In this document: in pieces, positions 14,299 through 49,929 of the stretch
Layout of the letters: every line of letters begins with the position of its first letter
Numbering within the stretch: the first letter of the stretch is position 1
Source: Arcobacteraceae bacterium
GTDB lineage: Bacteria > Campylobacterota > Campylobacteria > Campylobacterales > Arcobacteraceae
Direction of reading: 5' to 3'
DNA length: 64,000 nucleotides
Assembly (NCBI GenBank): GCA_963662945.1
Contig: OY759974.1
Coordinates: forward strand, 1,568,001 to 1,632,000
Position numbers and translations under genes: made by a program
Notes under the pieces: generated by a model
The model's input: the letters and a program-made list of their open reading frames with translations, nothing else
The model's database searches: none
What the model was told of the DNA's origin: nothing

Positions 14299-14376
14299 CG
14301 GAGTGTAGCGCAGTCTGGTTAGCGCACCTGGTTTGGGACCAGGGGGCCGGAGGTTCGAATCCTCTCACTCCGACCA
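14299..14376 (+). tRNA. tRNA-Pro(TGG)
   Basis: Cloverleaf, anticodon arm CCTGG-TTTGGGA-CCAGG, GGTTCGAAT T-loop, CCA end. Confidence 0.97.
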
Positions 14377-14422
14377 TGTGTTATTTAAAACTTTATAATA
14401 AACTTTAAACTATTTTTAGGAT

Positions 14423-14500
14423 GGTGGGTATAGCTCAGTTGGTTAGAGCATCGGGTTGTGGTTCCGAGGGTCGTGGGTTCGAGCCCCATTATCCACCCCA
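14423..14500 (+). tRNA. tRNA-His(GTG)
   Basis: Anticodon loop TTGTGGT, encoded G-1 opposite C discriminator, CCA end. Confidence 0.97.
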
Positions 14501-14523
14501 TATTTAAAAGTTTATTTACAAAT

Positions 14524-14600
<77 letters not shown>

Positions 14601-14628
14601 TTAATTGCTATCAATTAACTACATTTAT

Positions 14629-14713
14629 GCGGATGTGGTGAAATTGGTATACACGCCAGACTTAGGATCTGGTGCCTAACGGTGTGAAGGTTCAAGTCCT
14701 TTCATCCGCACCA
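14629..14713 (+). tRNA. tRNA-Leu(TAG)
   Basis: Anticodon arm CCAGA-CTTAGGA-TCTGG, long variable arm, CCA end. Confidence 0.97.
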
Positions 14714-14734: not shown

Positions 14735-14770
14735 ATAAAAAAAGCTCCAAGTAATTGGAGCTTTTTTTAT
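14735..14770. terminator. Bidirectional intrinsic terminator (tRNA operon / MCP)
   Basis: ATAAAAAAAGCTCCAA-GTAA-TTGGAGCTTTTTTTAT perfect hairpin with A and T tracts. Confidence 0.9.
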
Positions 14771-14815: not shown

Positions 14816-16684
14816 TTATATCGTTGCAGAATTTTTCCCAATAAACTCTTTTGAATTTACATCAGCTACTATCTCTTCTGCCATAGTATTTGTTTCTACT
14901 GCTATATCTTTTGTATGTGTGGCTGTAGAGGCATTTTTTTGAGTTTGTCTATCTAGTCCACCTATTGCATCATTTATTTGTTCTATACCTGTTCTTTGCT
15001 CTTTTGAAGAGGCAGAAACATCTTCTATTACAGCAATAGTATTTTGAATATTTTCATTTAAAAAATCATAACCATGAATCATACCATCTGAGATAGATTT
15101 CCCTTCACTAGCTTTTACCATAGCAATATCAACTAAATTTTTAATTTCATGTGCGGCATCTGCACTTCTAGAAGCTAAATTTCTAACCTCTTGTGCAACA
15201 ACAGCAAATCCTTTTCCAGCTTCCCCTGCAGTAGCTGCTTCGACGGCAGCATTAAGTGAAAGTATATTTGTTTGGAATGCTATTTGATCAATAACTGTTA
15301 TGGCATCATTTATAGATGTTACTTGTGAGTTAATATCATCCATTGCAGTTGTAGTCTTATGTGCAAGTTCTTCACCATCTTTCACTGCATTTGTAAGTTC
15401 AGAAGCATAGTTAAGCATTTTTTGAATATTTGAAGAATTACTTATCATCGTACTTGTGATCTCTTCTAATGCTGCTGCTGTTTCCTCTAGTGATGCTGCA
15501 GATTCATTTGAACTAGAATCAAGGACATTTACATTTTCAAGTAGTTTACTAGAATTTTTTTCTAATTTAAGCCCGTTTTCTAAACTATCTAATAACATTT
15601 TAGAGATAACATCTCCTAAATTATTAATACCATCACTTAGTTGTGCTAGTTCAGCAGTTATTTCTCCCTTTTCAACTTTTTGAGTATAATTTTGATGTGC
15701 ATAGCTATCTAATACAGTAAGTATTTTTGATATATTTGTATCTATAGCATCAATCATGTGATTCATAACATCTTTTAATTTATTAAGTTCTTGATTATTT
15801 GAGTTTTTTGTAATTCTTTGTGTGAGTTTTCCACTTGTTATACTATTGGCAATTTGTGTGGTATTTTCAATAAGTTCAAGATCAATTTGTTGATTTTTCT
15901 GAATATTTATAATATTTTCATTTACTAAATGTGCCATTGTACCTATTTCATCGGAGCTGTTTTCATCGAGTAAAACAGTTTTATCAGTTTTTTTATTTAA
16001 ATAATCAAAAAATTCTAATAAACCTTTTTGGAATATTACAATTGGTTTTATAAGCTGATATACTGATATATAATAACTTATTACTATAAAAAGTATTAAA
16101 CATAGTATTGAGACTATGAGTGAAAGTTTCATTTGATTGTTTAATTTTGTTTCACTATCTGTTTGAATTTCATCGTAATATTTTTTTACATTTGCATCTA
16201 GTTTTGCTAAACTTTTTTTGATTTTAAAAAAATAAGGTGAAATATCTATTTGAGCAACAGTTCCAACTAAGTCTAAATCTTCATCCTCATAAGCAGGAAG
16301 TATTTTTTCGATAATTATTTTTTTCATTAATAACCAGTTTTGGTTAATATCTTCTACAAGTTTTTTATTTTCTATAAATATAGTATCATTTAAGTTTTTA
16401 AATTGATTTTCAATTACGATAAATTTCTTTTTCATAGTATCATATGAGCCAACTGGAGCTGCAAAATCACTTCGAACTTCTATCATATTTGAAAAAGTCC
16501 ATTTGATATTTTCATCTAATTGTTTTATTTTATTTGCAGGTAGTACAGCTTTTGTAATAAAGTTATCTAATGATACTTTACCTTGGTTTGAGCTTACTAT
16601 TGTCATACTAGCTGAAAATAAAATTCCAATTAAGCCTATAATAACTAATAATAACATTTTAAATTTAATTGATAAATTTTTCAT
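14816..16684 (-). CDS. Methyl-accepting chemotaxis protein with periplasmic four-helix-type sensor domain
   Basis: Two TM helices, HAMP-like linkers, [30 protein letters not shown] signalling hairpin. Confidence 0.95.
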
Positions 16685-16707
16685 AATCTTCCTATATAAT
16701 GAGTATG

Positions 16708-16735
16708 AAGATAAAGACTATTGAGTCTTTATCTT
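16708..16735 (-). other. 12-bp stem-loop between the rhodanese and MCP genes (no U tract on the coding strand)
   Basis: AAGATAAAGACT-ATTG-AGTCTTTATCTT perfect inverted repeat. Confidence 0.7.
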
Positions 16736-16748
16736 GTGAAGTTTGGAA

Positions 16749-17210
16749 CTATTCTACTGGATTTCCAGCTTTTTTCCATGCAGGTATACCATCTCTCATC
16801 CAATATACATTTGTGTACCCTAGTTTTTTTGTAAGTACAACAGCCGCTTTATATGATTTCCAACATTTTTCACCGTTACAGTATGTAATTAATGCAGTCC
16901 CTTTATCAGCAGGAAGATTTTCTGTTTGAAATTTATCAGCACTTTGATCCCAATCTGCAGATTTATTTTTATTTCCACCTTTTTCATCATAATATGCTCT
17001 TATAGCACCTTTGATTTTACTTTGAGAAACTTCCATTGGTTTTCTTGTATCAAGAAAAGTTGCACCACTATCAAATAGCTTTTTTGCATCTGCAATAGAG
17101 ATGTATTTAGCACCCATAGTAGCACCCTCAGCAGGTTCAGGTGTAGTGGGTTTTGCAGCAAAAGCTAGTCCAACAAATATTACACAAAGTAATAAAATAA
17201 TTTTTTTCAT
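16749..17210 (-). CDS. Exported single-domain rhodanese-like protein
   Basis: Signal peptide (AFA-A), FLDTR, IKGA, loop YCNGEKCWKS, GY..VYWMRDGIPAW. Confidence 0.9.
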   Translation of the reverse strand: MKKIILLLCVIFVGLAFAAKPTTPEPAEGATMGAKYISIADAKKLFDSGATFLDTRKPMEVSQSKIKGAIRAYYDEKGGNKNKSADWDQSADKFQTENLPADKGTALITYCNGEKCWKSYKAAVVLTKKLGYTNVYWMRDGIPAWKKAGNPVE

Positions 17211-17441
17211 TTTTTCTCCTTTTAATAAGATAACAAATTCTATCAGAGTTAATATAATAGTTTAATAAAACTAATAATTAAATATTTTAAGCTATTTATA
17301 AAAAAAATAATCAAAATTAATTTAGATAGAAATATAAAATTAACAAATTGCCATATTTTAAAGTTAAAATTTTTTTTTGTGTTACTATTCTATTTACGAT
17401 TGTTTATAGATAATCAGTCAAATAAAATGGAGATAAAATTA

Positions 17442-17564
17442 ATGACAGAATTAATATTGTTTAGTATAGTTATAAGTATTATATTTTTTGGATATGAATA
17501 CTTAAAAGATAGGTTTTTAGAAAAAAATAAAACACCATTTCATAATAGATTAAAAATCAAATAA
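17442..17564 (+). CDS. Putative small single-TM membrane protein (~40 aa)
   Basis: GGAG SD before ATG 17442; hydrophobic N-terminus then basic tail. Confidence 0.4.
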   Translation: MTELILFSIVISIIFFGYEYLKDRFLEKNKTPFHNRLKIK

Positions 17565-17604
17565 TATAAAAACACTTTAAATAATTTCTTGATATATTTA
17601 TTAA

Positions 17605-18219
17605 TTAGTTTGTAAAATATCTTATGGAAGCAAATCCATAACAATTTGTATTTTTGACTTGTTGAACTTGTGTGTTATCAATAATTCCACCTAATCCTAT
17701 TATTTGGAAATTATCATCTTGATATTTTTCTACTATCACTTTTAAATTTTCACACCCTTTAGGATTGCCTTTATCCTCTTTGTAGAATATTGGGGAGTAA
17801 GTGATAGCATTTACCCCTTTTTGTTTAGCATTTAGGATCTCTTCTTCGTTGTGACAGCTAATTATTGTATATAGATTGTGTTGTTTTGCGTTGGCTATTT
17901 TATCGAATTGTTGCGAGGTGAGATGTACACCATCCAATTTCATATCTATAGCTTTTTTAATATCACTATTAATTAGTATTTTATCTATTTGAAATTGTTG
18001 TGCTATTTTTTGAAAGCATTTTACTAATTCAAAAGTATTGGGTGTCTCTTTATCTCTAAAACATACCATATCAACTTTTTGTTTAGAAAGTATTCTTGTA
18101 AAATTTTGTTCAAATTGTTTAGGGGTATTTCCATAAAATGATGGATCTGTAATCAGATAAGAGATAAAAAAAGGAGGCTTAATAGAAGCCTCCTTTTTTA
18201 ATTTTGTTTCTATAAACAT
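17605..18219 (-). CDS. Thiamine-phosphate synthase/TenI-family protein
   Basis: YLITD, FRDK, DGVHL, SCH, YSPIF, GLGGI motifs; start uncertain. Confidence 0.82.
   Translation of the reverse strand: MFIETKLKKEASIKPPFFISYLITDPSFYGNTPKQFEQNFTRILSKQKVDMVCFRDKETPNTFELVKCFQKIAQQFQIDKILINSDIKKAIDMKLDGVHLTSQQFDKIANAKQHNLYTIISCHNEEEILNAKQKGVNAITYSPIFYKEDKGNPKGCENLKVIVEKYQDDNFQIIGLGGIIDNTQVQQVKNTNCYGFASIRYFTN
18166..18199 (-). terminator. Intrinsic terminator of atpB, overlapping the 5' end of the downstream ORF
   Basis: Minus strand AAAAAAGGAGGCTT-CTATT-AAGCCTCCTTTTTTT. Confidence 0.8.
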
Positions 18220-18228
18220 AGATAAATA

Positions 18229-18915
18229 TTAGTGATCTTCCTCAGCCATCATAACTGAACCAGAAATATATACATAAGTAAGCATCATAAAAATAAATGA
18301 TTGTAATATACCAAATGCAAATAAGAAGAAAAATCCTGGTAGTGGTGCAATCCAAGGTACAAGCATAAGAAGTACCATTAAGAACATATCGTCACCTTTG
18401 ATTGAACCAAAAAGCCGGAATGATAAAGAAACTATTCTTGACACATGAGAAATAACTTCAATTGGGAACATTAAAGGAGCAAGTGCAGGAACAGGTCCCA
18501 TCATATGTCCTAGATATTTTCCAGCACCATTTTCTTTAAATCCTAAGTAGTTGTAGTATAAAAATACTAAAATTGCTAAAGATAAAGTAAAATTGATATT
18601 TCCTGTTACTGATTCAAAACCAGGAACAATTCCCATCATATTTGCTACAAATATAACTAAACCAAGAGTTGCTATAAGTGGCATAAACTTTTTAGCGTTC
18701 TCTTCACCCATTGAGTCTTTACCCATTGCTACTACACCTTTTAAGTAAGCCTCAATAATATTTTGTGTACCTGTTGGCACAAGTTGCATTTTACTAACAG
18801 CAGCTCTTGCTATTAAAAACACAATAATAACTGTCAATAGTAAGTGAGCACCGATAATCTCTACTTGACCGTGACCTACAAGTTCACCCAAGAATGTAAA
18901 TAATCTACCTTCCAT
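18229..18915 (-). CDS. atpB: F0F1 ATP synthase subunit a
   Basis: Polytopic membrane protein; PIE.IS..SR..SLSFRLFG, ILQSFIF..LT..Y. Confidence 0.96.
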   Translation of the reverse strand: MEGRLFTFLGELVGHGQVEIIGAHLLLTVIIVFLIARAAVSKMQLVPTGTQNIIEAYLKGVVAMGKDSMGEENAKKFMPLIATLGLVIFVANMMGIVPGFESVTGNINFTLSLAILVFLYYNYLGFKENGAGKYLGHMMGPVPALAPLMFPIEVISHVSRIVSLSFRLFGSIKGDDMFLMVLLMLVPWIAPLPGFFFLFAFGILQSFIFMMLTYVYISGSVMMAEEDH

Positions 18916-30933: not shown

Positions 30934-30965
30934 AAAAATATCCTCATCATTTTTGATGAGGATAT
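30934..30965 (-). terminator. Intrinsic terminator after the Sud-like rhodanese
   Basis: ATATCCTCATCA-TTTT-TGATGAGGATAT hairpin with T tract on the minus strand. Confidence 0.8.
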
Positions 30966-49101: not shown

Positions 49102-49116
49102 TTTTAAACAATATCC

Positions 49117-49929
49117 CTAATTTTGGGATATTGTTTTTTGTTCCAAAAGTATAGTTTTGAGTTCTTGTATCTCTACTCTTAATTTTTCTAGTTCTGATTT
49201 TGTATGATCTTCACTTGAATGTATCTCACTTACAAGAGTTTCACTTTCAGTGTCTTTGATTTCATTCATGGCATCTACTACAATTGCTATGATGAGGTTT
49301 ATCATAATAAATGTTACGATAAAAATAAAAGGAACAAAAAAGATCCAAGCATAAGGATCTACTTCCATAATAGGTCTAACAATTCCCATTGACCAAGATT
49401 CTAAAGTCATAATTTGGAATAATGTATAAAAAGACTCACTTAAACTACCGAACCATTGTGGAAAAGATTCTCCATAGAGTTGTGTTGCCATAATAGCAAA
49501 AATATAAAATAATAAAGTAAGTAATCCAGCAATAGAAGCCATACCTGGTATTACACTTACAAGTGCAATAACTATTTTTCTCATTTGAGGTACAACTGTT
49601 ACAAGCCTGAAGAGTCTAAGAACTCTTAAAATTCGTAAGATTTCAAATCCAGCACTAGATGGCACTAATGAAATAGCTACAATAAAGAAGTCAAATAAAC
49701 TCCATCCATCTTTAAAAAATGGTAATCTATGCACATAAATTCTCATAGCAATCTCTATTGTAAATATAGTGATAACAACTTTATCAAAGATATGTATAAA
49801 ACCACCAATAGAGTTCATAATATCTTTTGATGTTTCCATTCCCATAGTGATACCATTGAGGATAATGATAGCTATAATAAAGTTTTGAAATTTACTACTT
49901 TCTACAATACTTTTAGTTTTTTCATACAT
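49117..49929 (-). CDS. Voltage-gated sodium channel, NavAb/BacNav family
   Basis: S4 [10 protein letters not shown], selectivity filter TLESWSM, C-terminal coiled coil. Confidence 0.95.

Follow-up and report, generated by a model that had tools for sequence, protein, structure and literature searches.

What does a small exported rhodanese do directly in front of a chemoreceptor gene? The question is raised by a 64,000-nucleotide stretch of the genome of an Arcobacteraceae bacterium (GCA_963662945.1, contig OY759974.1, positions 1,568,001 to 1,632,000), hereafter the window. In it, a gene for a single-domain rhodanese lies upstream of a gene for a methyl-accepting chemotaxis protein (MCP) on the same strand, with a gap of 64 bp between them (16685-16748; Table 1). 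An earlier note, made from the sequence alone, had described a rhodanese with a signal peptide and the loop YCNGEKCWKS in this position, and this description is borne out by the open reading frames (ORFs) and Pfam matches. We consider it very probable that the two genes are functionally coupled and form one sensory unit. The explanation that fits best overall, which we hold with moderate confidence, is that the rhodanese acts as a thiol switch whose state would be read by the MCP sensor domain. The pair is probably a sensor of redox or sulfur chemistry outside the cell that steers swimming, of a kind not previously described.

The rhodanese-MCP pair is conserved across phyla

Members of the rhodanese family were searched for in 151 Arcobacteraceae genomes, including that of the window, and 19 genomes had any match at E<=1e-10. 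All ten full-length orthologues (45-93% identity) are followed directly downstream by same-strand matches to the HAMP/linker and signalling regions of an MCP, and the sensor domain encoded in the window was also matched in nine of these ten loci. None of the eight weaker rhodanese loci (L014-L021, 31-38% identity) has a same-strand MCP downstream; one of them, L020, has a convergent MCP. Flanking genes vary among the more distant orthologues, so that only the rhodanese-MCP pair travels together.

The linkage suspected in the earlier note also held in a survey of gene neighborhoods beyond the family. A cross-phylum scan was made with rhodanese-only peptide patterns, and the best 80 of 112 relatives were examined; these loci span Campylobacterota, Beta-, Gamma- and Alphaproteobacteria, Geobacteraceae and Acidobacteriota. 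An MCP signalling domain is encoded on the same strand within 4 kb downstream in 69/80 loci, compared with one same-strand MCP upstream (L084) and, on the opposite strand, one downstream and none upstream. With 26 MCP-signal matches in the 2.5 Mb of the window's own genome, chance adjacency is expected at about 1%. Between the stop of the rhodanese gene and the longest MCP ORF, as few as 1-31 nt remain in gamma/alpha and Acidobacteriota loci. A 400-genome sample of the phylum added four carriers, one of them a separate pair (L104) in which the longest MCP ORF (with a TTG start) overlaps the rhodanese gene. Named carrier strains include Kiloniella litopenaei P1-1 and Parasulfuritortus cantonensis LSR1. 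The module can be defined as an exported rhodanese with two cysteines spaced by four residues (CX4C) and a conserved C-terminal end, ...PAWKxAGxPxE, encoded directly upstream of a same-strand chemoreceptor gene or chemosensory operon; the window carries it in this form.

No MCP signalling domain was detected downstream in 11/80 loci. At two of these (L086 and L087) the contig edge falls inside an MCP, at two others (L097 and L099) fewer than 620 bases of downstream flank are available, and one is the second rhodanese copy of L084. Two belong to the beta clade (L054 and L041, the latter with the same ORF pattern as its relatives). L093, L100 and L102 have no MCP in the full 4 kb of flank, and L098 has none in 1,347 bases, with a convergent GGDEF gene. 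The next gene encodes a dihaem cytochrome c at L093 and a MauE/DoxX protein at L099. A quick tree groups the rhodaneses essentially by partner type, with one clade for each, and places the unlinked members on long branches. As an observation of its own, the contig of a lucinid symbiont (L084:1457-6117) carries a tandem module, in which a rhodanese-MCP pair is followed by a second rhodanese whose downstream neighbor is not an MCP but a response-regulator-TPR protein.

The two proteins also occur as one polypeptide

Rhodanese-MCP fusions were found in 14 protein clusters, comprising 13 full-length proteins (733-746 aa) and one fragment; one fusion protein is labelled Sulfurimonas sp. Uninterrupted fusion frames of 744-755 aa are also present in three genomes. 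The fused rhodanese is 46-54% identical to that of the window and has the loop YCNGxKCWKSYKAA. The order of parts is signal peptide, rhodanese, two extra or retained transmembrane segments, sensor domain, transmembrane segment and MCPsignal domain. The linker consists of an added transmembrane segment, a loop of ~10 residues and then the receptor's own first transmembrane segment. These two segments bring the chain back to the periplasm, so that the rhodanese would stay outside, tethered beside the sensor. In all six fused proteins checked, there is no cysteine besides the CX4C pair. A BLASTP comparison of the window MCP with the fused protein P0129 matched only the signalling domain; by profile comparison, the fused sensor domain is homologous to that of the window (hhalign probability 93.7%, E 2e-7, 183 columns). 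The fusions place rhodanese and sensor in one periplasmic assembly, a contact between the two not being evident from them.

The CX4C domain has been joined to other proteins as well. Searching 1.84 billion representatives with a profile yielded mainly multi-rhodanese repeat proteins and no clean count of the subfamily; among the matches we picked fusions with thioredoxin-like, MauE and phosphonate-binding-protein parts, and a ToxR-type regulator that ends in a CX4C rhodanese (Trans_reg_C, TolB_N-like, TPR, rhodanese). These fusions are P0210, P0240, P0194 and P0145, and P0271. A possible further case, at L102:2244-4604, is an adenylate cyclase-TPR-rhodanese protein encoded beside L102 and assigned by its domains.

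The partner receptors are of different types

Sensor types of the partners were assigned with Pfam on a sample of loci. Four-helix-bundle (4HB) MCPs are the partners in Arcobacteraceae and at one Terriglobales locus. The gamma/alpha partners are MCPs of ~621 aa, with dCache_3 or dCache_1 in 9/15 scanned and no sensor family at E<=1e-3 in the other 6/15; in the quick tree, gamma/alpha partner labels were assigned by locus number, and Pfam confirms the dCache assignment for these nine. Both MCPs scanned from Geobacteraceae are ~800 aa long, with a large sensor without family assignment. At three scanned loci out of 26 from Thiobacillus/Hydrogenophilales, the rhodanese heads a REC-(REC)-CheW-PilJ operon and the MCP is not adjacent (REC-REC-CheW-PilJ at L035; one REC ORF, CheW and PilJ at L039 and L043). 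This arrangement, of the pilG/H-pilI-pilJ type, suggests an input into twitching-motility control. The variety of partners (4HB, dCache, unassigned, PilJ) ties the rhodanese to chemosensory input generally and not to one sensor fold. A single docking surface conserved throughout the family is excluded, since the partner sensor types differ between clades.

The rhodanese has two invariant cysteines

The rhodanese begins with MKKIILLLCVIFVGLAFA followed by AKP, which reads as a Sec-type signal peptide, and its one hydrophobic segment spans residues 1-24; the protein is predicted to be exported to the periplasm. Reading Cys9 as a lipoprotein cysteine was rejected, as this residue is not conserved (Phe in L004/L005) and no lipobox is present. 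The AF2 model (pLDDT 91.4) has 6mxv, YgaP, BH2092 and GlpE, all rhodaneses, as its top Foldseek matches, with probability 1.00. In the model, the YCNGEKCWKS loop (residues 110-119) connects strand 107-110 to helix 117-129, which is where rhodaneses usually have their active site, and C111 takes the place of the catalytic cysteine, where the loop from the central strand to the next helix begins.

Canonical thiosulfate sulfurtransferases of the GlpE/PspE/Rhobov type have a six-residue loop that ends in Arg, Thr or Ser (CRxGx[R/T]). The loop encoded in the window is C-N-G-E-K-C, its last residue being an invariant cysteine. Neither C111 nor C116 varies among 11 orthologues or in 27/27 sequences spanning all clades, in which W145, G149 and P151 are likewise invariant, and CX4C is present in 119/120 near-length homologues among the matches listed. 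W117 is specific to the Campylobacterota, beta and Acidobacteriota clades and to two of three Geobacteraceae loci. Both invariant cysteines look redox-active. Profile alignments to 6mxv and YgaP give the rhodanese of the window 1-2 extra residues in the loop, and a CX4C loop was seen in none of the four alignments shown to solved structures.

The best NCBIfam match of the rhodanese is TsoB (NF045694), with an E of 2.6e-12 over profile positions 42-157 of 572. TsoB, a rhodanese/DsbD fusion-like selenoprotein, is listed with the motif UxxxxU in a table of a 2026 review (PMC13188914), and as far as that table goes the two share a pair of redox residues spaced by four (CxxxxC here). Unlike TsoB, the window protein has no DsbD membrane domain and no selenocysteine (there is no in-frame TGA), and its partner is an MCP. 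Membership in the TsoB family was rejected, given 45.6 bits against a cut-off of 805 and a length of only 153 aa. The PQQ_CXXCW protein (TIGR03865), associated with PQQ-dependent catabolism, resembles the rhodanese in being exported and rhodanese-related with a cysteine pair followed by Trp, and matches it partially at residues 96-153. This assignment was also rejected (45 bits against 128.05, CX4CW and not CXXCW, and another gene context).

The family profile further matched Sud, the Wolinella polysulfide-sulfur transferase (1qxn, E 6.7e-5), and E. coli PspE (2jtq, E 7.9e-8), the similarity being weak. Both are small, exported, single-domain rhodaneses like the one described here, and Sud comes from a Campylobacterota sulfur respirer; they have one active-site cysteine each and, unlike the window rhodanese, serve enzymes or redox homeostasis and not receptors. 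In CstR, SqrR, BigR and the back-door cysteine of Cdc25, the last a rhodanese fold, a cysteine pair reports sulfane sulfur or oxidation through a di-, tri- or tetrasulfide. Unlike these cytoplasmic repressors or phosphatases, the window rhodanese would be periplasmic and coupled to chemotaxis, and comparable chemistry is presumed for it.

The receptor sensor domain is free of cysteines

In the MCP, hydrophobic segments at residues 3-33 and 181-218 flank a periplasmic domain, as expected for a transmembrane chemoreceptor. Its only cysteine is residue 195, in the second transmembrane segment, and no periplasmic cysteine is found in the receptor across nine aligned orthologues. The mature rhodanese and the periplasmic domain of the MCP together hold only two cysteines, C111 and C116. 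Transfer of a persulfide onto the receptor was rejected, as the receptor has no periplasmic cysteine.

Judged by its model, the sensor domain is a four-helix bundle, although the Pfam match to 4HB_MCP_1 stays below threshold (19 bits against a cut-off of 27). The AF2 model (pLDDT 77.5) consists of four long helices (6-71, 81-101, 104-133 and 137-211), and its best PDB matches are the 4HB ligand-binding domains of the chemoreceptors Vc1313 (TM-score 0.81-0.82 by target length), Tar, Tsr and MCP2201, all of them with E >= 7e-3. The XylFII-LytS-N complex (5xsj) is also among the fold matches. Searching residues 1-215 against a set of 5.8 billion proteins returned six proteins, all close relatives (53-98% identity). 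This word search gave no wider sensor family, and profile comparison was needed for the link to the fused proteins. Separately, one of the 26 MCP-signal matches in the window's own genome (G000:C1:1256402-1256872) has an in-frame TAA and may be a broken chemoreceptor gene.

A periplasmic thiol switch as the proposed input

In the mechanism that we propose, the exported rhodanese would reside in the periplasm, where C111 and C116 may serve as a redox or sulfane-sulfur switch (dithiol, disulfide, persulfide/trisulfide). The cysteine-free four-helix-bundle sensor of the MCP would read the state of this switch, most likely by direct contact, and the MCP would signal through its HAMP and kinase-control domains to the chemotaxis pathway. 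In this way, swimming would follow thiol-reactive chemistry in the periplasm, most plausibly that of sulfide, polysulfide and thiosulfate in this Sox-carrying Arcobacteraceae bacterium. A prediction of the complex (two copies of sensor residues 33-183 and rhodanese residues 20-153, with alignments of 9 and 58 rows), run without controls, scored 0.08 against a mark of 0.32 and weighs neither for nor against contact.

Most carriers are sulfur oxidizers (Thiobacillus, Hydrogenophilales, Chromatiales, Sedimenticola, Thiodiazotropha, Arcobacteraceae and the protein labelled Sulfurimonas). The window's own genome encodes SoxB and two SoxZ, as well as an exported 406-aa paralogue whose three rhodanese domains include two with a CX4C loop (YCGGYKC and YCGGYAC). 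Next to the gene of this paralogue, and divergent from it, is one for a type III SQR-like flavoprotein, which carries a leader of the twin-arginine type. It was also seen that an MCP gene converges on the paralogue from the other side, and MauE (PF07291) was not found in this genome, which is 99.99% complete. Reduced sulfur species are the likeliest, if tentative, candidate for the signal, with slightly less than an even chance in our estimate, the grounds being the taxonomy of the carriers, the Sox genes and the SQR-like-adjacent paralogue.

A more specific version is a covalent sulfane-sulfur switch, in which a disulfide in the loop would react with sulfide or polysulfide to give a persulfide or trisulfide and the 4HB sensor would read the change, the rhodanese being a reusable periplasmic input domain. 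We regard this version as speculative and rather unlikely to hold in full.

Weighing the alternatives

Several observations weigh against a rhodanese switch read by the receptor. The last residue of the rhodanese loop is not one that canonical sulfurtransferases have there, and the stem-loop between the two genes, which has a T-run in four relatives, could end transcription. No MCP was found at L093, L098, L099, L100 and L102, although in the quick tree long branches lead to them. The 80 loci include many close kin (26 come from one beta clade), so that the linkage counts for about five to seven independent clades and not for 69. Finally, the sensor types of the receptors differ by rhodanese clade (4HB, dCache, PilJ and one unassigned), which leaves no universal docking surface.

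We nevertheless think it somewhat more probable that the rhodanese is the signal-input part than that it is an enzyme acting on a ligand. The latter idea is the main rival, though an unlikely one: the rhodanese would make, consume or carry the ligand of the MCP, for instance by delivering sulfane sulfur close to the receptor or taking it away, without a stable, state-dependent complex. A rhodanese fold with a cysteine at the catalytic position is what an enzyme would have, tethering beside the receptor would account for the fusions too, and the varied sensor types are easier to understand if what links the partners is just a small molecule. However, the periplasmic domain of the MCP has no cysteine to accept sulfur; the second invariant cysteine, together with the UxxxxU of TsoB, points to an intramolecular redox pair and not to simple transfer; and CX4C domains are found at the end of ToxR-type regulators, a setting that most naturally suggests a sensor role.

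It is improbable that the rhodanese is a periplasmic protein of redox or sulfur metabolism merely co-regulated with an MCP that binds its ligand directly, for instance with both genes induced by sulfur compounds. Mere co-regulation predicts neither the fusion into one polypeptide, with a transmembrane hairpin that keeps the periplasmic placement, nor a pairing that persists across phyla although the type of receptor changes, even if it would suit the terminator-like stem-loop found between the genes in all Campylobacterota relatives, the members that adjoin cytochromes or MauE/DoxX and not MCPs, and the CX4C paralogue beside an SQR-like gene. A role in maturation or repair, in which the rhodanese would keep the receptor reduced or folded, could be read from the redox-type cysteines and the adjacent receptor gene, but is very improbable, as the nine aligned receptors have no periplasmic cysteine and the fusions none outside the CX4C pair, which leaves no obvious substrate. 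Chance adjacency or an annotation artefact, for which nothing speaks beyond an AT-rich, compact genome, is refuted by the excess of downstream over upstream MCPs, the linkage in every orthologue and the existence of fusions.

Stem-loops and layout of the locus

The gap between the two genes contains a hairpin that the earlier note had described as a perfect 12-bp stem without a U tract. The perfect stem was confirmed and no separate U tract follows it; the description has to be qualified in that the stem joins an A-rich 5' arm to a 3' arm rich in U (AGUCUUUAUCUU). For the 86-nt junction, the folding energy is -15.3 kcal/mol, compared with -8.8 +/- 2.6 for shuffled sequences (z -2.5; 2/200 shuffles as good). 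A scan for stems of at least 12 bp with 3-8-nt loops found five perfect sites in the window, against 0.07 expected from 30 first-order Markov simulations, and the hairpin is therefore not a product of chance. A stem-loop follows the rhodanese stop directly in 10/10 Campylobacterota relatives, with differing stem sequences. Since it carries a T-run in four of these ten (L027, L029, L030 and L032), the element may be a partial terminator as easily as a stabilizer of the mRNA. Acting as a partial or weak terminator or as a 3' stabilizer, it probably determines how much rhodanese transcript is present relative to MCP transcript, and in the proposed mechanism it would tune the two partners in this way. 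A terminator scan found none; it also missed the strong hairpin at 14735-14770, so that its silence on the intergenic one means little. As a separate observation, Halarcobacter-type relatives have a second long palindromic stem-loop (~20 predicted pairs) after the terminator-like hairpin and directly before the ribosome-binding site (RBS) of the MCP gene (L027:4459-4571, L028:4459-4562, L029:4459-4536), a candidate operator or element of translational control.

Two other perfect hairpins, at 14735-14770 and 18167-18199, have the same layout of an A-arm and a T-arm as the intergenic one, and both can be read as bidirectional terminators. The first probably closes the unit and is shared with a tRNA-Pro/His/Arg/Leu cluster (14299-14713, plus strand) that is convergent with the MCP gene. 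The second, a 14-bp hairpin with A-/T-run flanks, lies just downstream of atpB (18229..18915, minus strand) and inside the 5' end of a long thiE/tenI-like ORF (17605..18219). It looks like the atpB terminator, and the real start of the thiE-like gene is therefore probably at a later codon. Further perfect 12-bp hairpins are present at 30938-30965 and 49106-49136.

Upstream of the rhodanese gene is a spacer of 394 bp. Its conserved ~130 bp before the rhodanese start are probably the promoter, leader and RBS, as judged by alignment, and a Shine-Dalgarno-like AAGGAG stands 7 nt ahead of the ATG. A sigma-70 promoter scan gave 25 sites against 21 expected and is uninformative. The spacer, which lies between the thiE-like gene and the rhodanese gene, is ~265 bp longer than in the close relatives L023 and L024, and the extra DNA (17342-17604) carries a hydrophobic 61-aa ORF on the plus strand (17379..17564).

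Table 1 Positions of the rhodanese-MCP pair, its parts and associated elements (window coordinates unless a locus is named).
Feature	Position	Strand	Description and basis
Rhodanese gene	16749..17210	(-)	153 aa, exported (predicted), single-domain, CX4C subfamily; ORF, PF00581 Rhodanese 57.2 bits (cut-off 22.2)
Signal peptide	17157..17210	(-)	Residues 1-18, MKKIILLLCVIFVGLAFA, predicted cleavage after AFA; read from sequence
Active-site loop	16863..16880	(-)	C111-N-G-E-K-C116 (CX4C), then W117; alignments and model
MCP gene	14816..16684	(-)	622 aa, transmembrane chemoreceptor; ORF, PF00015 MCPsignal 121.1 bits, PF00672 HAMP 30.7 bits
MCP periplasmic sensor domain	16136..16588	(-)	~Residues 33-183, four-helix-bundle type (model), no Cys
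MCP signalling domain	14951..15403	(-)	Residues 428-578, PF00015
Intergenic hairpin	16708..16735	(-)	Perfect 12-bp stem, 4-nt loop; in the 64-bp gap, ends 23 nt before the MCP start codon
Hairpin after the MCP gene	14735-14770		Perfect 16-bp stem, A-run/T-run flanks; between the MCP stop and the convergent tRNA cluster
Putative promoter/leader/RBS region	17211..17341	(-)	~130 bp conserved in three close relatives (alignment)
Triple-rhodanese/SQR-like locus	L002:1066-2286; L002:2418-3164	(-); (+)	Own genome, near C1:504000-506000

Relation to known chemoreception and significance

Chemoreception through a binding protein is known from E. coli (MBP-Tar, RBP/GBP-Trg and DppA-Tap), Halobacterium (BasB-BasT and CosB-CosT) and Pseudomonas (PstS-CtpL). 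This is the nearest known kind of system, and the module differs from it in the fold of the partner and in a presumed covalent or redox mode. As in indirect chemoreception, a soluble periplasmic partner would act with a transmembrane receptor that has a helical-bundle sensor, and as in BasB-BasT, the gene of the partner lies directly upstream of that of the transducer. Unlike the partners in these systems, the one described here has a rhodanese fold with two redox-type cysteines and not the fold of a solute-binding protein, its signal would probably be a covalent or redox state and not the reversible binding of a ligand, and the pair also occurs fused through a transmembrane hairpin. A full-text literature search returned no paper on a rhodanese-chemoreceptor pair or fusion, and the portions available of PMC3543383 and bioRxiv 10.64898/2026.03.30.715255 contain nothing on such a pairing.

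The module is a concrete, widespread and genetically testable candidate, with two small genes, two cysteines and natural fused versions. Sulfur-oxidizing bacteria position themselves precisely in gradients of sulfide and oxygen, and to our knowledge no periplasmic receptor for reduced sulfur has been described; none was encountered in the literature search either. If the rhodanese switch is real, indirect chemoreception would no longer be confined to proteins that bind a solute reversibly but would include a redox-enzyme fold reporting a chemical state, and a large uncharacterized subfamily of rhodaneses would gain a function. Should the covalent version also be true, the pair would be the first receptor identified at the molecular level for the chemotaxis of sulfur bacteria to sulfide/polysulfide, and the CX4C rhodanese a periplasmic input domain that evolution has combined with chemoreceptors of the 4HB, dCache and PilJ types, with ToxR-type regulators and possibly with cyclases.

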